Source of the DNA: a virus
DNA length: 60,779 bases
Reading direction: 5' to 3' (one strand)
Virus genome (UHGV): UHGV-0247086
Shown here: in pieces, positions 5,458 to 49,650 of the stretch
Position numbering within the stretch: the first letter of the stretch is position 1
Layout: each line of letters starts with the position of its first letter
The notes under the pieces: generated by a model
What the model was told of the DNA's origin: nothing
The model's input: the letters and a program-made list of their open reading frames with translations, nothing else
Databases searched by the model: none
Program-made: the position numbers and the translations under genes

Positions 5458-6630
5458 GTGAGCTCAGGTGCAAAAGTAGTAGCCGCGTTTATTCGCGAGA
5501 CAACGCCAGGAATCACGCCAACAGCAGGGGCGTGGAACCTGCTGCGTCGTTCTTCATTTGGTCTGAAACCAACGCAGAACACCAATGACAATGACGAAAT
5601 CGCTGGTGACCGCATGGCGCAGGGTGTTTCACGCGGCACAGTGGATGTCGGCGGCGATGTCGGCACGCGGTTTCGCTGGAACCAGCATGATGATTTTCTT
5701 GCCAGCTGCTTCGGTTCCGAATGGGTAAATAACGTGCTGACGATGGGTAATGGTCGCATTACGTTCTCCGTGGCGACTTTTGCCAGTGATGTGGGGATCG
5801 CCCAGATTGCCCGCGGTTGCCAGGTTGGCACCTTCCAGATGGAAATCCCGGCCGATGGTGATATCACTGCAACCATTACGTTTGCAGGGCTGGACTGGGA
5901 GACGAAGGGGGACGATGCCAGCTATTTCACCGCGCCGGTGGATTTAGCGGGGGCGCTGCGTTACTCCTTCAAAGAGGTCACCAACATCCGGCTAAATGGT
6001 GTTGATGGCGGGACAGGCTTCTGCGTCGACACCTTTAACATTCAGTTCGACAACAATATGCAGACCCAGCGCTGCATCGGTACCGGTTCGGCGTTCGCCG
6101 GCGCAAACATTCCGACAACCTTTACCCCGTCAGGTCAAATCACGCTGTCATGGTCAAAAGCTGCCTGGGAGGTTTACAAAAAAACGTTCACCGGCGAAAC
6201 GGTGCCGTTTAGCTTCTCCCTGGAGAATGCTGAAGGCTCCTATACCTTCGATTTCCCGGAAGTGCAGATCTCCGGCGACTGGCCGGATGCGGGGAGCACT
6301 GACATTGTTCAGGTTCAGCTGGATATCACCGCGGCCAATACTCCGCCGACGATTACGCGCGTGCCTAAAGTGCCGGCGACGGCAATCAGTGTTGCGCCAG
6401 CCACTTCAGCTGGGGCCGTGGGATCTACTGTGACGTTAACCGCCACGCTTACGCCAGCTGATTCAACTGATACCGTCCAGTGGACGTCATCGGATCCGAC
6501 TATCGCCAGCGTGGTTTCTACCGGGCAGAAAACAGCGAAAGTCACACGTAACGCAGCCGGCACTGCAACCATCACCGGTAAGGCCCGCACCTTTACGGCA
6601 ACGTCTGAAATCACCGTTACCGCGCCTTAA
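5458..6630 (+). CDS. major tail tube protein with C-terminal Ig-like (Big_2-type) domain
   Basis: GTG start with RBS AGGAGG. C-terminal ~90 aa is an Ig-like beta-sandwich (TATLTPADSTDTVQWTSSDPTIASV), as in lambda gpV-like tail tubes. Confidence 0.8.
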   Translation: MSSGAKVVAAFIRETTPGITPTAGAWNLLRRSSFGLKPTQNTNDNDEIAGDRMAQGVSRGTVDVGGDVGTRFRWNQHDDFLASCFGSEWVNNVLTMGNGRITFSVATFASDVGIAQIARGCQVGTFQMEIPADGDITATITFAGLDWETKGDDASYFTAPVDLAGALRYSFKEVTNIRLNGVDGGTGFCVDTFNIQFDNNMQTQRCIGTGSAFAGANIPTTFTPSGQITLSWSKAAWEVYKKTFTGETVPFSFSLENAEGSYTFDFPEVQISGDWPDAGSTDIVQVQLDITAANTPPTITRVPKVPATAISVAPATSAGAVGSTVTLTATLTPADSTDTVQWTSSDPTIASVVSTGQKTAKVTRNAAGTATITGKARTFTATSEITVTAP

Positions 6631-19249: not shown

Positions 19250-20788
19250 TTATTCAGTTGGCAGTGCTACGCGCCAGGGGAGTAGTTCGCTGACCCGGTT
19301 TATCGGCCAGTCAGCAATGACGTCAAGGACATAACGGAGGTAGCTTTCTGGCTCCACTCCGTTCAGTTTGCATGTCCCGATCAGGCTGTACAGCAGCGCT
19401 CCCCGCTCTCCTCCATGATCCGAACCGAAGAACAGGTAGTTTTTGCGGCCCAGGCTGACCATCCGTAGCGCATTCTCAGCTATGTTGTTATCTGCCTCGG
19501 CCCAGCCGTCGTCAGTATAGTAAGCCAGCGCCGGCCACTGGTTCAGTACGTACGTGAACGCTTTCGCCAGTTCTGAGTGTCGCGACAGCGTTTTCACCTT
19601 TTCACGCAGCCAGCTTTCCAGGGATTTCAGCCGCGGTTTAGCTTTTTGCTGACGTTCTGCAAGGCGTCGCTTCGCCGGCATCCCCCTTATTTCCGCCTCG
19701 ATGGCATATAACTCACCGATCCGTTTCAGGGCTTCCTCCGTCAGCGCTGACGGGGTGCGAACGTGCACATCGTGGATCTTGCGGCGGGCATGAGCCCAGC
19801 AGGCAGCTTCCGTTATCTGTCCATTGCGGTACAGTTCGTTGAACCCGGCGTACGCATCCGCCTGCAGAACACCGCTGAAGCCAGCGAGATGGCTCTGCGG
19901 GTGGATACCTTTTCTGTCCGGGCTGTAAGCGAACCACACTGCCGGCGCCAGCTCTGACCCGGCGTTACGGTCGTCACGAACGTAGGTCCATAACCGCCCG
20001 GTCTTCGTTTTCTTATTACCTGGCAACAGCACCGGGACAGGCGTGTCATCAGCATGGAGCTTACCGTCAGTCAGGACATAGTCCTGAAGCGCCCCTTCCA
20101 GCGGTGACAGTAGCCGGCAACACGCATCCACCCAGCCCGACAGCAGTGAGCGGCTCAGCTCCACACCCTGGCGGCCGTATATTTCAGACTGGCGATACAG
20201 CGGGGTGTGCTCTGCATACTTTGAACTCAGCACGCGGGCCAGCAGCCCCGGTCCTGCGATACCCCGCTCGATGGGCCGTGAAGGCGCGGGGGCCTGCACG
20301 ATGGCATCGCACTGAGTACAGGCATGCTTTTCACGTACTGTCCGGATAACCCGGAAGGCGCTGCGCATCAGCTCCAGCTGTTCGGCGGCATCTTCACCCA
20401 GGTAACTCAGCGCACCACCACATTCCGGGCAGCATGACGCTGCCGGCAGCAGCCGTTTTTCGTCACGGGGAAGTGATTCAGGGAACGGTTTGCGGGTACG
20501 GGTCTGCCGCAGCGGGCGCTGCACGGCCGGGTCATCCACCCGGCCGGTAAGGGTATCGCTTTCTTTCTGCAACTGCTTAAGGTCGGCTTCCATCTGCGCG
20601 ATACGGCGGGAGACTTTTTCGGAGCGGCTGCCGAAGTTCATCCGGCGCAGCTTATCCAGTTGCGCCTGCAGGTGATCTATTTCGCGTTCACGCTCGTTCA
20701 GCTTTTCCAGAAGGGCACGGTTCAGCGCCTCCTGTTCGGCAAGGAGACGTTTCAGTTCATCGATATTGTCAGGAAGTAAGCTGTTCAT
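19250..20788 (-). CDS. IS66 family transposase TnpC (orf3)
   Basis: 512 aa with an N-terminal leucine zipper (LKRLLAEQEALN) and the CPECGG zinc motif typical of IS66 TnpC. Confidence 0.85.
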   Translation of the reverse strand: MNSLLPDNIDELKRLLAEQEALNRALLEKLNEREREIDHLQAQLDKLRRMNFGSRSEKVSRRIAQMEADLKQLQKESDTLTGRVDDPAVQRPLRQTRTRKPFPESLPRDEKRLLPAASCCPECGGALSYLGEDAAEQLELMRSAFRVIRTVREKHACTQCDAIVQAPAPSRPIERGIAGPGLLARVLSSKYAEHTPLYRQSEIYGRQGVELSRSLLSGWVDACCRLLSPLEGALQDYVLTDGKLHADDTPVPVLLPGNKKTKTGRLWTYVRDDRNAGSELAPAVWFAYSPDRKGIHPQSHLAGFSGVLQADAYAGFNELYRNGQITEAACWAHARRKIHDVHVRTPSALTEEALKRIGELYAIEAEIRGMPAKRRLAERQQKAKPRLKSLESWLREKVKTLSRHSELAKAFTYVLNQWPALAYYTDDGWAEADNNIAENALRMVSLGRKNYLFFGSDHGGERGALLYSLIGTCKLNGVEPESYLRYVLDVIADWPINRVSELLPWRVALPTE

Positions 20789-20836
20789 ACCGGGTATATT
20801 ACCAGGCTCATTCAGCGTCGACCAGGATAAAGAGGC

Positions 20837-21184
20837 CTACAACATAGTCAGTGACGTAAGCAGTCTTTTAGGCTGCCGCCAGTCGATACCTTCAAGGAGC
20901 ATCGCCAGCTGTGCCGGTGTGAGGAACACTTTGCCATCCCGGGCTGACGGCCAGGCGAAGCGGCCGCGCTCCAGCCGTTTGGTCAGCAGACACAGTCCAT
21001 CGCCGGTAGACCAGAGGAGCTTTACCTGACTGCCATTACGCCCACGGAAGATAAAAACGTGACCTGACATCGGATCGTCTTTCAGCGTCGTCTGCACCTT
21101 TGCCGCCAGGCCGTTGAAGCCGTTTCTCATATCGGTGATGCCAGCGACCAGCCAGATCTTTGTCCCTGATGGTAATGGGATCAA
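20837..21184 (-). CDS. IS66 family accessory protein TnpB (orf2)
   Basis: 115 aa, by recall matching IS66 Orf2. Confidence 0.8.
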   Translation of the reverse strand: MIPLPSGTKIWLVAGITDMRNGFNGLAAKVQTTLKDDPMSGHVFIFRGRNGSQVKLLWSTGDGLCLLTKRLERGRFAWPSARDGKVFLTPAQLAMLLEGIDWRQPKRLLTSLTML

Positions 21185-21585
21185 CGTTTGAGCTCCCGTA
21201 TCAGCAGGTTCAGGATATTTTCGCTGATGGCACCATTCAGACGGAGTGATCCGTGCCGGAACGTCACTTCACAGCTGATATTGAGTGATTCAGGTGCCGC
21301 AGCAGCTACAGGTTGTGACCGGGGGGAGGTTGCAGGGACAACATCTTCGGCATCAAGTGTTATCGGGAGCAGCTCAGGCACGTTGTTTTCTGTTGTTGAA
21401 GGAGGACGTAGTTTTCCTTCGCGCCAGTACTGGCGCCACTTGAACAGCAAATTATCGTTGATCCCATGCTCACGAGCGAGTTGCGCTACGGAGATCTCTG
21501 GTCGATGCGAGAGTTCAACCATTTTGATTTTGAACTCAACAGGATAATTAGGGCTTTTTTTACGCACTGCGGTTAATGATTTCAT
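21181..21585 (-). CDS. IS66 family accessory protein TnpA (orf1)
   Basis: 134 aa HTH protein overlapping tnpB by an ATGA, as in IS66 elements. Confidence 0.75.
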   Translation of the reverse strand: MKSLTAVRKKSPNYPVEFKIKMVELSHRPEISVAQLAREHGINDNLLFKWRQYWREGKLRPPSTTENNVPELLPITLDAEDVVPATSPRSQPVAAAAPESLNISCEVTFRHGSLRLNGAISENILNLLIRELKR

Positions 21586-21674
21586 GGATAGCGTCCACCA
21601 TATTTGGTGTCCACTATCCTCTCAGGAATATCAGGATCTGCCAGACGGTGCTGAGACGACGCTTACGATTGGTG

Positions 21675-23853: not shown

Positions 23854-23879
23854 TTCGCCCAAACGAGGGTTTGAGTGAA
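23854..23879. promoter_or_regulatory. putative Hin/Gin-family inversion crossover site (right), inverted copy of the left site
   Basis: TTCGCCCAAACG-AG-GGTTTGAGTGAA. Its reverse complement differs from the left site at one position and has the same CT core. It lies 22 bp upstream of the tail-spike B start. Confidence 0.55.
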
Positions 23880-23922
23880 AGAGCAAAGCTTTTTACAATC
23901 AGCAATTTCAAAGGGTTACAAC

Positions 23923-24471
23923 ATGCTGATTGGCTATGCACGCGTCTCTACAGGGGATCAAAACCTCGATTTACAGAAAAACGCGCTGATCCGCGCAGAA
24001 TGTGAGCTGGTTTTCGAGGATATGGCCAGCGGGAAGAATGCCCGGCGGCCAGGGTTAAAGCGAGCGCTGCGACGGCTCCGCCCGGGTGATGTGCTGGTGG
24101 TCTGGAAACTGGACCGGCTGGGCCGCAGCGTGCGCGATCTGATTACGCTCGTATCGGAGCTGCAGGCGCGCGGGGTGAATTTTCGCAGCCTTTCCGACAG
24201 CATCGATACCAGTACGCCAGCAGGCCGCTTTTTCTTCCACGTCATGAGCGCCCTGGCGGAAATGGAGCGCGAGCTGATCGTCGAGCGTACCCGCGCCGGT
24301 TTAGCCGCTGCTAGGGAGCAGGGGAGAGTCGGCGGCCGCCGTCGGGTAATGACTGAAGAAGTGGTGGAGCGCTGCCGCAGGATGCTGGATACGGGCGCTA
24401 CGCGGCAGCAGGTAGCCGATGTAATAGGTGTAGACGTGAAAACAATCTACAAGTACCTCCCGGCGACTTGA
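23923..24471 (+). CDS. serine-recombinase DNA invertase (Hin/Gin/Cin/Pin family)
   Basis: MLIGYARVSTGDQ, the catalytic Ser motif, and a C-terminal HTH. Collinear with Hin by recall. Positioned immediately outside the right inverted repeat. Confidence 0.9.
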   Translation: MLIGYARVSTGDQNLDLQKNALIRAECELVFEDMASGKNARRPGLKRALRRLRPGDVLVVWKLDRLGRSVRDLITLVSELQARGVNFRSLSDSIDTSTPAGRFFFHVMSALAEMERELIVERTRAGLAAAREQGRVGGRRRVMTEEVVERCRRMLDTGATRQQVADVIGVDVKTIYKYLPAT

Positions 24472-25258: not shown

Positions 25259-25496
25259 AGTTTGCTCACCTGCGAACCGTATGCAAGAGATCGCAGGTGA
25301 GCAATTCGCTATGAGGGCATTGCCATAGCTGAAAAATTTTAACCTCGCATTATTCGCAAAACCATCAAACAGCTAAAGCCTGAATACACTTTAAGACTTA
25401 CCTTACTCGTTACATCAATGTGTTACGGCAATGACATAAATTGATAGCCAGAACCTATATTGATCTGTCGCTCTGTTAAAACTACTGTATATAAAA

Positions 25497-26812
25497 GGGT
25501 CTTCCCTTGTTGTGGTGGCTGAAGGCATGATAATGGCGTATTAAATCGCCAGAGGTCACCACCATGGACGAAAAGTCCCTCTATGCACATATCCTCAACT
25601 TGTCAGCTCCGTGGCAGGTAAAGTCTCTTTCTCTCGATGAAAATGCCGCTTCTGTTACCGTTACTGTCGGAATCGCTGAAAATACTCAGTTAACCTGTCC
25701 AGCCTGCGGGAAATCCTGCCCCGTTCACGATCACCGGCATCGTAAATGGCGCCACCTCGATACCTGCCAGTTCGCCACGATAGTTGAAGCCAGTGTGCCC
25801 CGTGTTATGTGTCCGAAGCATGGATGCCAGACTTTGCCTGTTCCGTGGGCGGGGCCCGGCAGCCGGTATACGCTGCTGTTCGAATCATTCGTGCTTTCAT
25901 GGCTGAAAATCAGCACTGTTGATGCGGTCAGGAAACAACTCAAACTGAGCTGGAATGCCGTTGACGGCATTATGACCCGCGCGGTTAAACGAGGTCTTGC
26001 ACGCATAAAAAAGCCGTTAGCAGCCCGGCATATGAATGTGGACGAGGTCGCTTTTAAAAAAGGACATCGTTATATAACGGTGATCTCCGATCGTGACGGG
26101 CGGGCGCTGGCTTTAACGGATGATCGAGGTAAGGAAAGTCTTGCCGGTTACCTCAGAACCCTGACTGACGGACAGCTGCAGGCCATTAAAACGCTCTCAA
26201 TGGACATGAATGCGGGCTATATAAGAGCCGCGCGCATCCACTTACCGTGTGCAGTTGATAAAATCGCCTTTGACCGCTTCCACGTAGCGAAACAGCTGGG
26301 TGAGGTGGTGGATAAAACCCGCCAGAATGAACATCCCCGTCTTCCGGTTGAAAGCCGCCGTCAGGCCAAAGGTACCCGCTTCCTGTGGCAGTACAGCGAC
26401 AAATGGATGACTGAGTCCCGGCAGAAAAAGCTGATGTGGCTGCGGGAACAGATGCAGCAGACAAGCCAGTGCTGGACACTGAAAGAGCTGGCCAAAAATA
26501 TCTGGGATCGCCCCTGGAGCACAGAACGCAGGAATGACTGGTTGCAGTGGATATCGCTGGCGTCTCAATGTGATGTGCCGATGATGAAAAACGCAGCGAA
26601 AACCATCAAAAAACGGTTATATGGAATACTGAATGCGATGCATCATCGTGTCTCGAATGGTAATGCAGAGGCGCTGAACAGCAAGATCAGACTGCTGAGA
26701 ATAAAAGCCAGAGGATACAGGAACCGGGAGCGCTTTAAGCTGGGAGTGATGTTCCACTATGGAAAACTGAATATGGCGTTCTGAGTCTTCCCACCATGAT
26801 CGGGGAAGACCC
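25497..26812 (+). mobile_element. ISL3-family insertion sequence (1316 bp) with 8-bp TSD ATATAAAA, inserted into the umuDC LexA operator
   Basis: Terminal IRs GGGTCTTCCC...GGGAAGACCC. TSD at 25489-25496 and 26813-26820. Removing the IS and one TSD copy restores TACTGTATATAAAAACAGTG. Confidence 0.85.
25564..26784 (+). CDS. ISL3 family transposase
   Basis: 406 aa with an N-terminal zinc-finger (CPACGK...CPKHGC) and a DDE domain. Confidence 0.85.
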   Translation: MDEKSLYAHILNLSAPWQVKSLSLDENAASVTVTVGIAENTQLTCPACGKSCPVHDHRHRKWRHLDTCQFATIVEASVPRVMCPKHGCQTLPVPWAGPGSRYTLLFESFVLSWLKISTVDAVRKQLKLSWNAVDGIMTRAVKRGLARIKKPLAARHMNVDEVAFKKGHRYITVISDRDGRALALTDDRGKESLAGYLRTLTDGQLQAIKTLSMDMNAGYIRAARIHLPCAVDKIAFDRFHVAKQLGEVVDKTRQNEHPRLPVESRRQAKGTRFLWQYSDKWMTESRQKKLMWLREQMQQTSQCWTLKELAKNIWDRPWSTERRNDWLQWISLASQCDVPMMKNAAKTIKKRLYGILNAMHHRVSNGNAEALNSKIRLLRIKARGYRNRERFKLGVMFHYGKLNMAF

Positions 26813-26823
26813 ATATAAAAACA

Positions 26824-28745
26824 GTGTGCGCCGGGAGACCGGTAGAGATCAAGGGGTGAAAGTCCCCGACCATTGAAGGACCAGCAATCCACAAGGTCCC
26901 CGAGTCATGCGTTGCATACCGCGAGGTATGGGGCGAAGCGTTGACAGGGGTGTTGACAGGCCAGCCATTGAGCCACGAAATGTATATTAAATTACCGGGT
27001 GCCGACGTTGTACTGTTAACGGAAGGCAACATCATAGGGTGCGATACTGCGAGTGCCACATGGACCCGGCGGGGTCTGAGACCCTGGCATGTCAATACGA
27101 TCTCTACGCGGGAACCGGGAGATCTCCCCTCTGACCATCTGCCAGTGTCGGGGATGGCCCGCACCGGGAAGACGAGGAGTCATAGCCGGTGATGTACGGA
27201 GAGGAGAAGTCGGACTCGCTCATAGTAGCGGCGAAGCAGGCGAACAACCCGAAAGGAGCGGAGTCAGTGGAGCGAAGGAGCGGGGCCAAGGGGAACGCGG
27301 AACAGCCACACATGCGCCGGACACAGAGCCGGGAAAGCATGTCACAGAGGCTGTCACGCGTGCGGGAAGCTGCGAAGCAGCGGAAGAAAGAACGGTTTAC
27401 AGCATTGTTCCACCTGCTGACAGTCGAAGCACTGGAAGCCGCATTCCTCTCCCTGAGCAGGAAAGCGGCCGCCGGAGTGGATGGCATCAGGTGGATGGAC
27501 TACGCCGGAAACATGAAGAACAACATAACAGATCTGCACCGGAGGCTACATCAGGGCAGCTACAGGGCGCAGCCCGGCAGGCGTCACTACATCCCAAAAG
27601 CGGATGGAAAACAACGCCCGCTCGGCATCGCCTCGCTGGAGGACAAGATCGTCCAGTATGCGCTGGTGAAAATCCTGAACGCAGTCTATGAAAACGACTT
27701 TATGGGGTTCTCATACGGGTTCAGACCCGGGCGAAGCCAGCACGATGCACTGGACGCACTGGCCACAGGGCTGGTACGCACTAACGTAAACTGGGTACTG
27801 GATGCCGACATCAGTCAGTTCTTTGACAGGGTGAGCCATGAATGGCTGATCAGGTTCACAGAGCATCGGATCGGCGACCGGAGGGTAATCAGGCTCATAC
27901 GTAAGTGGCTCACAGCCGGGACGTCGGAGGAGGGTCAATGGCGAGCAACGGAGGAAGGCACCCCACAGGGTGCGGTCATCTCACCGCTGCTGGCAAACAT
28001 ATACCTCCACTACGTCTTCGATCTGTGGGCGCATCAGTGGCGACGTCGCTATGCCACAGGCAATGTGGTAATGGTCAGATACGCCGATGACATCGTCATC
28101 GGGTTCGACAAACGATACGATGCCCGGCGCTTCCGTATAGCCATGCAGCGCAGACTGAGGGAGTTCGGACTCACGGTTCACCCGGAGAAAACCCGTCTGA
28201 TGGAGTTCGGCCGCTTCGCTGCCGAAAACCGTGCCATCAGGGGAAAAGGCAAACCAGAAACGTTCAACTTCCTCGGGTTCACGCACATCAGCGGGAAAGA
28301 TCGCAACGGCAGGTTCATGCTGATACGAAAGACCCGCCGGGATCGGATGACGGCAACTCTGAAAGCCATCAAAGACGGTCTGCGAAGGCGCTGGCATTAC
28401 TCAATCCCCGAACAGGGAAAATGGCTCAGGAGAGTGGTTCAGGGATACCTGAACTATCACTCGGTACCGGGCAACTTCCCCACCATGCAGAAGTTCAGGA
28501 CACACGTAACAAACCTCTGGCGCCGGGCGCTCAGGCGCAGGAGCCAGAAGGATGATACGACCTGGACGAAAGCAAACAAACTGGCAGCCGCATGGCTACC
28601 AGGGGTTCGGGTTCTTCATCCATGGCCTGTGGAGCGGTTCACCGCCAGACACCCGAGGCAGGAGCCCGGTGCGTAAATCGCGCACGCCGGGATCTGTGCG
28701 GGGGGTATCCGGTAACGGGTATCCCTACCGCGACATTAATCTGAG
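26824..28745 (+). mobile_element. bacterial group II intron (5' end GUGUG/GUGCG at 26824-26830; 3' end uncertain), sense to umuDC
   Basis: GTGYG 5' end, intron-encoded RT/maturase ORF, and a 34-nt DV-like hairpin (14 bp, 2-nt bulge, GUAA loop) at 28698-28731 just after the ORF. Confidence 0.7.
27189..28676 (+). CDS. group II intron-encoded reverse transcriptase/maturase (no endonuclease domain evident)
   Basis: RT motifs ([29 protein letters not shown]) including YADD, followed by a maturase X-like region. The true start is probably internal. Confidence 0.85.
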
Positions 28746-28756
28746 CGAGTCAATTA

Positions 28757-29175
28757 TGCAGTTTTACACGCCCGTTGAGTTACGTGAGATCATGCTGATC
28801 CCGTTGTACAGTGACCTTGTGCAATGTGGTTTTCCAAGCCCTGCACAGGATTATGTTGAGCAACGTATCGATCTGAACGAGTTGCTCATTAACCACCCCA
28901 GTGCGACGTATTTTGTCAAAGCCGCCGGCGACAGCATGAAAGACGCCGGCATAGGGGAAGGGGATCTTCTGGTTGTGGATAGCTCAAGGACAGCAGTTCA
29001 TGGCGATATCGTTATTGCTGCTGTGGATGGGGAATTTACCGTTAAGAAGCTGCAGCTGCATCCGCGGGTTCAGCTTAACCCAATGAACCCTGCATATTCG
29101 CCGATAGTCGTGGGTAGCGAGGATACTCTCGATGTGTTCGGGGTCGTAACTTACATCATCAAATCGGCTGGCTGA
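28757..29175 (+). CDS. umuD: translesion DNA polymerase V accessory subunit UmuD (LexA-like S24 peptidase)
   Basis: Collinear with UmuD by recall: N-terminal [23 protein letters not shown], and the catalytic Ser (GDSM) and Lys (VKKL). Confidence 0.9.
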
Positions 29176-29176
29176 G

Positions 29177-30442
29177 ATGTTTGCACTTTGCGATGTGAAC
29201 TCATTTTATGCATCGTGCGAGACCGTATTTCGTCCTGACCTGAAAGGGCGTCCGGTGGTCGTCCTGTCAAACAACGACGGCTGCGAGATCGCCCGTTCAC
29301 AAGAGGCAAAGCCCTTTGTCAAAATGGGCGAGCCTTATTTCAAGCAAAAGGACATGTTTCGCCGGCACGGTATTATCGCGTTTAGCAGCAACTATGAGCT
29401 TTATGCCGATATGTCCAACCGAGTGATGACAACGCTGGAGGAACTCTCTCCACGCTGCGAAATTTACAGTATTGATGAGGCATTTTGCGATCTTACAGGT
29501 GTGCGTAACTGTCGCGATCTTACCGACTTTGGCAGAGAAATTCGCGAGACAGTTCTGCGTAGGACGCACCTCACGGTCGGCGTCGGCATAGCCCAGACTA
29601 AAACCCTGGCGAAGCTGGCCAATCATGCTGCGAAACAGTGGCAGCTACAGACCGGAGGAGTGGTGGATCTGTCTAATCTTGAAAGGCAGAGGAAGTTGAT
29701 GGCTTTGCTGCCGGTGGATGAGGTCTGGGGCGTCGGGCGCCGCATCAGTAAAAAACTTGAGGCCATGGGGATTAAAACTGTGCTGCAGTTGGCGGATACC
29801 GATATCCGTTTTATCCGGAAGCATTTCAACGTCGTGTTGGAAAGAACTGTGCGGGAGCTGCGCGGCGAACCATGCCTTGGCCTTGAGGAGTTCGCGCCGG
29901 TAAAGCAGGAAATCGTGTGCAGCCGTTCGTTCGGCGGCCGTATCACTGAATACCATGAGATGAGGCAGGCGATATGCAGCTACGCCTCACGTGCCGCGGA
30001 GAAACTCCGTGGTGAGCACCAGTATTGCGGATTTATCTCCGCATTTGTCAAAACCAGCCCCTTTGCGCTGAACGAGCCGTACTATGGGAACAGCGCATCG
30101 GTAAAGCTGTTAACCCCAACGCAAGACAGCAGGGACATAATCACCGCAGCGACCAAATGCCTCGATGTAATCTGGCGAGAGGGGCATCGCTATCAGAAAG
30201 CAGGCGTTATGCTGGGGGATTTCTACAGTCAGGGCGTGGCCCAGCTCAACCTCTTCGACGACAACGCACCACGGAAGAATAGCGAGAAACTGATGGAAGT
30301 TCTCGACCATCTCAATGCGAAAGGCGGAAGAGGAACTCTGTATTTTGCAGGGCAGGGGATCCAGACTGCCTGGCAGATGAAGCGGGAAATGCTTTCGCCT
30401 CGGTACACCACGAGATACAGTGACTTGATACATGTGAGATGA
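29177..30442 (+). CDS. umuC: translesion DNA polymerase V catalytic subunit UmuC (Y-family polymerase)
   Basis: MFALCDVNSFYASCE Y-family N-terminus, 421 aa, immediately downstream of umuD. Confidence 0.9.
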   Translation: MFALCDVNSFYASCETVFRPDLKGRPVVVLSNNDGCEIARSQEAKPFVKMGEPYFKQKDMFRRHGIIAFSSNYELYADMSNRVMTTLEELSPRCEIYSIDEAFCDLTGVRNCRDLTDFGREIRETVLRRTHLTVGVGIAQTKTLAKLANHAAKQWQLQTGGVVDLSNLERQRKLMALLPVDEVWGVGRRISKKLEAMGIKTVLQLADTDIRFIRKHFNVVLERTVRELRGEPCLGLEEFAPVKQEIVCSRSFGGRITEYHEMRQAICSYASRAAEKLRGEHQYCGFISAFVKTSPFALNEPYYGNSASVKLLTPTQDSRDIITAATKCLDVIWREGHRYQKAGVMLGDFYSQGVAQLNLFDDNAPRKNSEKLMEVLDHLNAKGGRGTLYFAGQGIQTAWQMKREMLSPRYTTRYSDLIHVR

Positions 30443-49373: not shown

Positions 49374-49399
49374 GGTATACTGTTTATTTGTACAGTATT
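49374..49399 (+). promoter_or_regulatory. LexA (SOS) box upstream of dinI-like gene
   Basis: TACTGTTTATTTGTACAGTA, a perfect CTGT-N8-ACAG, about 20 nt upstream of the RBS. Confidence 0.65.
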
Positions 49400-49416: not shown

Positions 49417-49650
49417 ATGAAAGTTGAAGTCACAATTGATAAACATAAAAAACTCCCTGATGGCGCCATACCTGCGCTTGAGCAAGAATTGCTGCGCCGC
49501 TTGTCCCAGTCCTATGATGATTGCAAATTAACCATTCGACGCACAAGCAACGATGGCCTTAGCGTTTTGGGTGGCGCTGATGGCGATAAAAAACGCGTTG
49601 AACAAATCCTGCAAGAGACGTGGGAAAGCGCGGACGACTGGTTTTACTGA
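49417..49650 (+). CDS. dinI: DinI-family DNA damage-inducible protein
   Basis: MKVEVTIDK...LSVLGGADGDKKRVEQILQETWESADDWF collinear with E. coli DinI. RBS GAGGTG. Confidence 0.85.
   Translation: MKVEVTIDKHKKLPDGAIPALEQELLRRLSQSYDDCKLTIRRTSNDGLSVLGGADGDKKRVEQILQETWESADDWFY

Follow-up and report, generated by a model that had tools for sequence, protein, structure and literature searches.

What became of the SOS operator of a Klebsiella prophage umuDC operon in whose middle an insertion sequence (IS) now sits? The locus lies in the virus genome UHGV-0247086, a stretch of 60,779 nucleotides (the window). An earlier note had recognised an ISL3-family IS inside the umuDC LexA box; that observation is confirmed, while its interpretation was partly right and incomplete, a group II intron being absent from its reading of the locus. 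As corrected, the locus is one operator with two elements and a gap of 3.2 kb to umuD. We put at roughly four in five (0.82) the probability that the prophage umuDC operator was taken in turn by two mobile elements, for each of which a LexA operator is the normal target. More broadly, the sequences compared here indicate that an ISL3 clade and a group II intron both target the LexA operator; in the window a single box holds the two of them.

The CTGT and ACAG half-sites of the umuDC LexA box flank the IS, and the 8-bp spacer between them, ATATAAAA, is its target site duplication (TSD), present at both 25489–25496 and 26813–26820. At the left junction ...GTTAAAAC-TACTGT-ATATAAAA runs into the IS start at 25497 (GGGTCTTCCC...), and at the right junction the IS end at 26812 (...GGGAAGACCC) is followed by ATATAAAA-ACAGT-G. 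The sequence bears out the earlier note on the splitting of the half-sites and on the TSD at either side. Its statement that removal of the IS and one repeat restores an E. coli-type umuDC operator is right for the match to the box but wrong for the last base, which in the operator is A and not G: the deletion gives TACTGTATATAAAAACAGTG, whose final G (26826) is base 1 of the intron. The intron starts one base before the end of the LexA box, and deleting the IS, the intron and one repeat gives TACTGTATATAAAAACAGTA followed by the umuD leader, exactly as in the Klebsiella phage ST846-OXA48phi9.2 (L006). This reconstructed sequence is a CTGT-N8-ACAG palindrome matching TACTGT(AT)4ACAGTA, stands upstream of an SOS gene, and is identical to the box before the E. 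coli chromosomal umuDC (L003), itself a characterised LexA operator. The identity suggests LexA binding and damage-inducible expression at the window box.

The empty site is uninterrupted in the same Klebsiella phage and in K. pneumoniae pBio30 (L007), where the left part of the operator is joined directly to the right part and the intact box stands about 20 nt upstream of umuD (...TTGATCTGTCGC(T/C)TTGTTAAAAC-TACTGTATATAAAAACAGTA-T(T/A)AAT(C/G)TGAGCGAG...ATG). That CTGT and ACAG might be IS sequence is ruled out, since empty sites have them in one uninterrupted box and at occupied sites they stand beyond the variable duplication. The IS has likewise not rebuilt an operator at a junction, since the left junction reads CTGT-N8-GGGT and the right one ACCC-N8-ACAG. 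Downstream, the 3′ exon of the intron opens with ATTAATCTGAGCGAGTCAATT-ATG and runs into umuD behind the same leader as in the empty phage site; an S24 self-cleaving UmuD is followed by a Y-family polymerase, UmuC. Upstream, the −35-like and −10-like elements are collinear with TTGATC-N17-TACTGT before E. coli umuDC (L003) and with both empty sites, so that 25460–25488 is probably the umuDC promoter, one that falls below the sensitivity of a consensus scan.

Table 1. Features of the split umuDC operator and its surroundings in the window.
Feature	Position	Strand	Remarks
Putative umuDC promoter	25460–25488	+	−35-like TTGATC 25460–25465, 17-nt spacer, −10-like TACTGT 25483–25488; read from sequence
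Left operator part	25483–25496		TACTGT and spacer ATATAAAA (25489–25496, TSD copy 1)
ISL3-family IS, ISCfr12 type, 1316 bp	25497–26812	+	Left inverted repeat (IRL) 25497–25518; right inverted repeat (IRR) 26791–26812; transposase open reading frame (ORF) 25564–26784
TSD copy 2 ATATAAAA and right half-site ACAGT	26813–26820 and 26821–26825		Also the 5′ exon of the intron, with intron-binding sites IBS2 and IBS1
Group II intron Kl.pn.I5 (= Se.ma.I1), 1909 nt	26826–28734	+	GTGCG...CGCGAC
3′ exon	28735–30442	+	Last operator base A 28735, 21-nt leader, umuD, umuC
umuD	28756–29175	+	139 aa; Pfam Peptidase_S24 (E 1.7e-29); ORF intact
umuC	29177–30442	+	421 aa; Pfam IMS, IMS_C, DUF4113; ORF intact

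The earlier note implied a lucky landing, but for this IS clade the LexA-box spacer is the regular point of insertion, as the edge of the box is for the intron. All 14 copies with the exact transposase, from the window, from three plasmid loci and from ten places chosen without regard to target, are flanked as ...(A)CTGT-[N8]-IS-[N8]-ACAG(T)..., and four of them deviate in one of the two half-sites (CTGA, or TCAG for ACAG). Two flank-blind scans that specified only the IS left end, one of metagenome contigs (64 loci) and one of viral contigs (30 loci), gave CTGN at −12 to −9 in 94 of 94 left ends (CTGT 90, CTGA 2, CTGG 2; 72 distinct flanks). Across 87 distinct left flanks the logo reads, in percent, T61 A91 C100 T100 G100 T95, and the duplication that follows reads A82 T90 A68 T84 A76 T61 A90 T68, or ATATATAT-like; the target logo as a whole, TACTGT(AT)4ACAGTA, reads as the E. 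coli-type LexA consensus. CTGT stands at the fixed offset of 8 nt from the IS end in 79 of 83 distinct sites (binomial P ~1e-184). Compared with the 36 free CTGT-N8-ACAG sites of the same 2.3 Mb, IS-occupied boxes more often have a spacer with at least 7 A/T (61 of 83 versus 12 of 36, P = 7e-5) and more often an A before CTGT (75 of 83 versus 17 of 36).

The neighbours identified at IS sites are SOS genes: sbmC, dinI, umuDC and S24 peptidase genes. The IncX3 blaNDM-5 reference plasmid pNDM_MGR194 (NC_022740) has ISKox3 in CTGT-atgcatat-[IS]-atgcatat-ACAG, about 20 nt from an operon of a small ORF and an S24 peptidase (umuD-like), and this is the "IS26-delta-umuD-ISKox3" context of many resistance papers. 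The IS shows no orientation bias with respect to the adjacent gene (13 co-directional, 12 opposite), as expected of a symmetric target. Relatives of the transposase keep the rule at 73% identity (Yersinia, four sites, one of them upstream of dinI), at 64% (Providencia) and at 70% (P0044), although in the last of these the right ACAG lies 10 nt and not 8 nt from the IS end. ISSoEn4 of Sodalis (70%, upstream of uvrD) offers one copy with the exact protein, in which the left side fits and the right end is degraded. For the 45% relative P0107 no ACAG was found at +8 in the right flanks, with divergence beginning 6 nt past the ORF and ends that are not rigorously defined and not alignable to the ISCfr12 repeats; somewhere between 64% and 45% transposase identity the rule appears to be lost. 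A further observation concerns nine loci (L119, L129, L131, L133–L135, L146, L178, L199) at which the two sides of the IS carry different 8-mers, each still beside CTGT or ACAG, which implies homologous recombination between IS copies in different LexA boxes and the joining of unrelated SOS loci.

The IS itself is 100% identical over 1316 nt to ten copies at different loci in other genomes, 99.9% identical to a plasmid copy (L001) annotated by PGAP (the Prokaryotic Genome Annotation Pipeline) as "ISL3-like element ISCfr12 family", and 85% identical to ISKox3. Its terminal inverted repeats match at 17 of 22 positions (IRL GGGTCTTCCCTTGTTGTGGTGG; IRR, reverse complement, GGGTCTTCCCCGATCATGGTGG). 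The 406-aa transposase carries Zn_ribbon_ISL3, HTH_Tnp_ISL3 and DDE_Tnp_ISL3 (PF14690, PF13542, PF01610; E 1.9e-57), scores 331.6 bits against the NCBIfam model transpos_ISL3 NF033550 (cut-off 180), and shows in Pfam and NCBIfam no domain beyond this standard ISL3 set. The 8-bp duplication differs between copies and is single in empty sites. Together with the activity of ISKox3, whose transposition into capsule genes has been seen experimentally (PMC12057282), the ten identical copies at different loci point indirectly to transposition of the ISCfr12-type element.

The second occupant is the same element as the reference Kl.pn.I5 on the K. pneumoniae plasmid pK245, to which it is 99.8% identical over 1909 nt and which is also named Se.ma.I1 (PMC6764390). 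The Rfam family RF02005 (group-II-D1D4-6) matches 26859–27084 over model positions 1–225 of 225 (186.6 bits, E 1.2e-55, gathering score 49), and the ends, GTGCG at 26826 and ...GAC at 28734, fit the group II pattern 5′ GUGYG and 3′ AY. The intron encodes a reverse transcriptase (RT)/maturase of 495 aa (27189–28676; TIGR04416 at 376 bits, cut-off 300), in which Pfam finds RVT_1 only and neither Pfam nor NCBIfam an endonuclease domain; the RT accession WP_004178082.1 is common to several intron loci. No Rfam domain V/VI family matched at E <= 0.01, and domains V (DV, about 28658–28697) and VI (DVI, 28698–28731) were checked by folding instead. The minimum free energy (MFE) structure of 28655–28734 contains both hairpins (z = −4.0), DV with a 2-nt AC bulge and with the A and G of the AGC triad unpaired, DVI with an unpaired UA whose A (28727) bulges out 8 nt before the intron's end. 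At least 5000 plasmid matches to Kl.pn.I5 were found, at least 3446 of them at 99% identity or more, and the filled and empty alleles, with dozens of near-identical copies at different sites, are indirect evidence for splicing and retrohoming.

Two peculiarities of the intron's distribution stand apart from its targeting. Copies with 100% RT identity occur in type-strain assemblies of Streptomyces, Actinomadura, Microbacterium, Kitasatospora, Pedobacter, Flammeovirga and Arthrobacter (L009, L010, L014, L015, L016, L026, L027); a broad host range read from such assemblies was rejected as probable contamination, the copies lying mostly on contigs of about 2 kb with enterobacterial plasmid-type flanks. 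Head-to-tail tandems with a 1909-nt period occur in two viral contigs, with intron 5′ ends at 6088, 7997, 9906 and 11815 in L225 and at 1103 and 3012 in L262, each intron 3′ end abutting the next GTGCG. They could be an assembly artefact, intron-after-intron insertion, or multimeric or circular forms.

Intron flanks were extracted by BLAST from an RT-protein survey (one genome per species), from exact-protein contexts and from a flank-blind scan of viral contigs; 132 of the 134 5′ ends had at least 20 nt of readable flank, and 67 upstream flanks were distinct. Apart from sites where an IS end replaces the left half-site and from the tandems, the copies read ta-CTGT-N8-ACAG-t-[intron]-a. Over 60 distinct flanks the left half gives T85 A90 C97 T100 G100 T92, the spacer A75 T98 A92 T98 A72 (T55/A35) A93 (A43/T53), and the right half A95 C100 A100 G100 T93; the base after the intron is A in 46 of 51. 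The intron occupies the chromosomal umuDC box of E. coli in at least 12 complete genomes (H4–H15; L003), chromosomal and prophage umuDC of Klebsiella, sbmC, dinI-like genes of P2-like phages, and the divergent umuD/ardC box of pK245-type plasmids. Of 49 distinct sites, 33 have the intron in sense orientation to a downstream gene, whose start codon follows the 3′ splice site at a median distance of 19 nt; this places the intron in 5′ untranslated regions (UTRs) just past the operator, whose core is left intact.

Base pairing accounts for much of this rule. Exon-binding site 1 (EBS1), ACUGUU (27012–27017), lies in the hairpin loop GUACUGUU (27010–27017) and is complementary to AACAGT, and IBS1 positions −5 to −1 are paired in 53 of 60 distinct sites. 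EBS1 covaries with the target across relatives in six other target classes. Two relatives at 69% have EBS1 UACUGU with (A/C)CAGTA^ (^ marking the insertion point) in beta-proteobacterial CTGG/CTGT-N8-(A/C)CAG boxes, a register shift of one base; the other pairs are CUGUUG with CAACAG^, UGUCAC with GTGAC(A/G)^, CUGACC with GGTCAG^, UUA(U/C)UC with GAGTA(A/G)^ and GUUUCC with GGAGAC^. A candidate EBS2, UGUAUAU (26981–26987), can pair with ATATA(C/T)A at −13 to −7, and the extra conservation at −12, −11, −10 and −7 fits such pairing; the assignment is probable for Kl.pn.I5 itself only. A relative at 64% is present in many copies in one alphaproteobacterial metagenome-assembled genome (L039–L045, L069, L078), after TTACGGTGAC(A/G) and with a matching EBS1, UGUCAC, and this sequence is another short multi-copy target. 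Among the copies of Kl.pn.I5, the same upstream 24-mer is found with different 3′ exons and vice versa, and in K. pneumoniae 19PDR22 (L008) the intron-occupied umuDC box is TACTGTATATATATTCAGT versus TACTGTATATAAAAACAGT, its flanks otherwise alike. The difference from the window suggests recombination between intron copies at different boxes, which would swap operators between SOS genes.

Both elements together are not confined to the window. Independently, an IS and the intron also share the box at E. coli sbmC (dacD-[ISKox3][intron]-sbmC, L315), the tisB/ivbL intergenic box of E. coli (L316), the plasmid umuD/ardC box with ISKox3 in either orientation (L002, L004) and another plasmid box (L001), and the two stand side by side in 40 records of the plasmid collection. 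Such recurrent double hits would be expected if an intron-occupied box, in which CTGT-N8-ACAG is still present, stays open to the IS as a target. Across both elements the occupied boxes include those of umuDC, sbmC, dinI, tisB, uvrD and the umuD-like operon of the IncX3 blaNDM-5 plasmid. At least six copies (L099, L102, L206 and others) have the intron at the very site of the window, with both flanks identical and no IS; because this state is common, intron first and IS second would be the simplest history.

In the mechanism we propose, Kl.pn.I5 would retrohome to the 20-bp box, entering the top strand just ahead of the final base (TACTGT-N8-ACAGT^A), with EBS1 of the intron RNA paired to the right half-site AACAGT and EBS2 probably to the AT spacer. 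With the core CTGT-N8-ACAG intact and the intron sense in the 5′ UTR, the SOS promoter would drive transcription of the intron, which splicing could then remove, and its expression and mobility would be expected to follow SOS induction. An ISCfr12/ISKox3-type IS would then transpose into the same box, its transposase presumably reading CTGT/ACAG directly and not via bound LexA; staggered cuts at the inner edges of CTGT and ACAG would make the 8-bp spacer the TSD, split the operator and leave the promoter at its present distance from umuD.

ISL3 elements generally make 8-bp AT-rich duplications, and an ordinary member of the family with a loose preference for AT-rich 8-mers might have landed here by chance, selection or shared ancestry producing the apparent rule. 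SOS genes are dispensable, so insertions there would persist, and the direct repeats of ISKox3 in capsule genes are simply AT-rich (PMC12057282). The single-nucleotide precision of the 8-nt offset is nevertheless beyond selection, and the variation of spacer, flanks, host genus and IS orientation argues against one inherited insertion; an accident of this kind is scarcely credible. Guidance by LexA deserves more thought, although we regard it as doubtful. Bound LexA, by contact or by bending the DNA, would lead the transposase, and possibly the intron ribonucleoprotein, to its site, and the rule would be LexA's own. The IS logo is the entire LexA consensus with its flanking TA and AT-rich spacer, beyond CTGT/ACAG, occupied sites are more LexA-like than free ones, most identified sites belong to genuine SOS genes, and the cuts are symmetric around the operator dyad. 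Direct read-out by a symmetric transpososome fits at least equally well, however, given that the half-site shows C, T and G at its first three positions in 100% of cases and that the cut always falls at the same place. Some IS sites moreover have a spacer that is not AT-rich and no gene start nearby (CTGT-TGTTCAGT-ACAG, L114/L143), the transposase has only the standard ISL3 domains, and for the intron RNA–DNA pairing already accounts for 14 of 20 positions.

For the intron alone, the palindromic box might act by structure, forming a hairpin in single-stranded DNA at replication forks with insertion 3′ of the stem and only a short IBS1. Endonuclease-less introns rely on replication-fork DNA, and this intron's protein has no detected endonuclease domain; the insertion point lies directly 3′ of a perfect or near-perfect palindrome whose left arm is conserved outside the EBS-paired region. 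Yet the D1–D4–6 RNA, the 6-nt EBS1, the likely EBS2, the 1.9-kb length and the 495-aa protein are not the compact design of class IIC introns, relatives with non-palindromic targets (TTACGGTGACA, CAACAG) share the EBS1 logic, and the AT-rich stems of such boxes make weak hairpins, all of which renders hairpin homing unlikely, and a shade less likely than guidance by LexA. The reading in which each element recognises the operator for itself also meets resistance. The EBS2 assignment is weak: position −8 in the window is an A facing G, and no convincing EBS2 complementarity was found to the spacers of the two 69% relatives (L029, L030). The left half-site TACTGT is 85–100% conserved although outside the EBS-paired stretch, so something beyond base pairing is involved, be it the intron protein, DNA structure or the occurrence of such 14-mers only in real operators. 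Two loci of the 70% IS relative (L296/L297) read TACTGT-GTATATAT-[IS] on the left and GTATATAT-AT-ACAGT on the right, with ACAG at 10 nt; the box could be read as GTGT-N8-ACAG struck 2 nt off centre, or one correctly spaced half-site may be enough. Insertions of ISKox3 into capsule genes (PMC12057282, flanks not given) indicate that specificity may not be absolute under selection. Counts of distinct flanks overestimate independent events, since orthologous sites differ by single-nucleotide polymorphisms, and function throughout (LexA binding, transcripts, splicing, transposition) is read from sequence.

The IS, the intron and umuDC all run in the same direction, and the −35-like TTGATC and −10-like TACTGT, which stay upstream of the IS as the earlier note had placed them, now point into IRL and the co-oriented transposase gene. 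The distance of 1.3 kb that it gave between promoter and umuDC is too short by the 1909-nt intron between box and umuD. Another intact LexA box driving umuDC, which it named as a possible refutation, did not turn up: no CTGT-N8-ACAG, exact or with up to one mismatch, occurs between the IS and umuD. With the promoter elements upstream of the IS and no other box before umuD, loss of normal LexA control is a sound prediction; loss of promoter function, which the note also predicted, is not established. The duplicated spacer and ACAGT keep IBS2–IBS1 of the intron intact, so that a read-through transcript could still splice. A scan of 25300–28800 predicted no terminator on the + strand, and co-orientation without a predicted strong terminator means that read-through and subsequent splicing could still express umuDC. 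No sigma-70-like + strand site was found in the same interval by a scan that also missed the native umuDC promoter and is too insensitive for outward promoters. We expect LexA-independent, probably weak expression of umuDC rather than simple silencing; in the strain of the window, umuDC would lie outside LexA control and depend on read-through and splicing.

Elsewhere in the window, a second, perfect and unoccupied LexA box, TACTGTTTATTTGTACAGTA, lies at 49378–49397, 19 nt upstream of an ORF (49417–49650) of the DinI family (Pfam DinI, E 1.1e-26). Orthologous dinI-like boxes are occupied by Kl.pn.I5 in other genomes (L009, L232, L259, L270), and this box is potentially an empty target for both IS and intron in the same prophage region. 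Positions 20000–21671 are 96% identical to an IS66-family element of Stx2-converting phages and lie just upstream of the tail-fibre and Hin-type invertase genes (23875–24471, Resolvase and HTH_7) that precede the umuDC region.

The preference of both elements for LexA operators is apparently unreported. No publication was found that links Kl.pn.I5/Se.ma.I1 to LexA, in a search that left subscription journals mostly aside, so that a prior description is possible; of the 41 papers that combine group II introns with LexA, none of the 30 listed deals with such targeting. In mostly non-subscription literature, none joined ISKox3 with LexA, and among the papers listed on ISL3, LexA and insertion sequences nothing was relevant. 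Leclercq and Cordaux 2012 derived a homing consensus for Kl.pn.I5, spanning −25 to +10, on the basis of three copies and saw no unoccupied site in strain MGH (PMC3522654), and their text mentions neither LexA nor SOS nor umuD; other publications that name Kl.pn.I5/Se.ma.I1 merely list the element. Compared with that account (PMC3522654), the homing site is identified here as a LexA operator, from 67 distinct flanks and the covariation of EBS1.

Both elements are common in clinical Enterobacterales, with ISKox3 on globally spread IncX3 blaNDM plasmids, and both have been annotated repeatedly without a known target rule. If both home to LexA operators, their insertion sites become predictable (umuDC, sbmC, dinI, tisB, uvrD, plasmid and phage SOS genes), and insertion would provide a mechanism for SOS rewiring in which error-prone polymerase, toxin and gyrase-inhibitor genes lose LexA control, with a bearing on mutagenesis, persistence and the evolution of resistance. 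Such a target would be unusual, a transposase on the one hand and a ribozyme on the other having arrived by convergence at the same 20-bp repressor site, and two natural site-specific insertion systems would be available as tools whose specificity could be dissected and, in the intron's case, reprogrammed. It is conceivable, though we hold it only tentatively, that LexA operators are a shared landing pad and that LexA, or its removal in SOS, guides or gates ISKox3/ISCfr12 transposition and Kl.pn.I5 retrohoming. Were that so, antibiotic-induced DNA damage would both activate the elements and expose their targets, each IS insertion would free one more SOS gene (umuDC, sbmC, dinI, tisB, uvrD) from LexA, and bacterial transposition guided by a host transcription factor would affect mutagenesis and persistence genes of clinical Enterobacterales.

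Comparison with known systems sets both elements apart. The IS of the window is one of the Enterobacterales ISL3 elements ISKox3, ISCfr12 and ISEc53, with the same ends, 8-bp duplication and 406-aa transposase. In the publications searched these figure as ordinary ISs with AT-rich repeats, as in "IS26-delta-umuD-ISKox3" on IncX3 blaNDM plasmids, whereas every copy sampled here sits in a LexA-box spacer. Class IIC introns insert after intrinsic terminators or integron attC sites and recognise a DNA stem-loop and an IBS1 of 3–4 nt. Like them, the intron of the window is endonuclease-less, inserts just 3′ of a regulatory palindrome that each genome carries many times, and does so in non-coding DNA with little harm; unlike them, it has a D1–D4–6 RNA in Rfam, a 6-nt EBS1 and a probable EBS2, and the motif that it follows is a repressor site where a transcription unit begins, not a terminator where one ends. 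Other elements are site-specific, among them IS1397 and ISKpn1 in REP/BIME units (repetitive extragenic palindromes/bacterial interspersed mosaic elements), IS110/IS621-type elements and Tn7 at attTn7. The near-absolute choice of a short conserved host sequence is common to them and to the two elements described here, but here a global stress repressor binds the target, which occurs on chromosomes, plasmids and phages alike, and insertion into a LexA site would rewire SOS genes. Integron integrase promoters, lambdoid and CTX-type phages and colicin plasmids carry LexA boxes of their own, which tie mobility to SOS. In contrast, the IS and the intron of the window contain no CTGT-N8-ACAG themselves and occupy resident operators instead.

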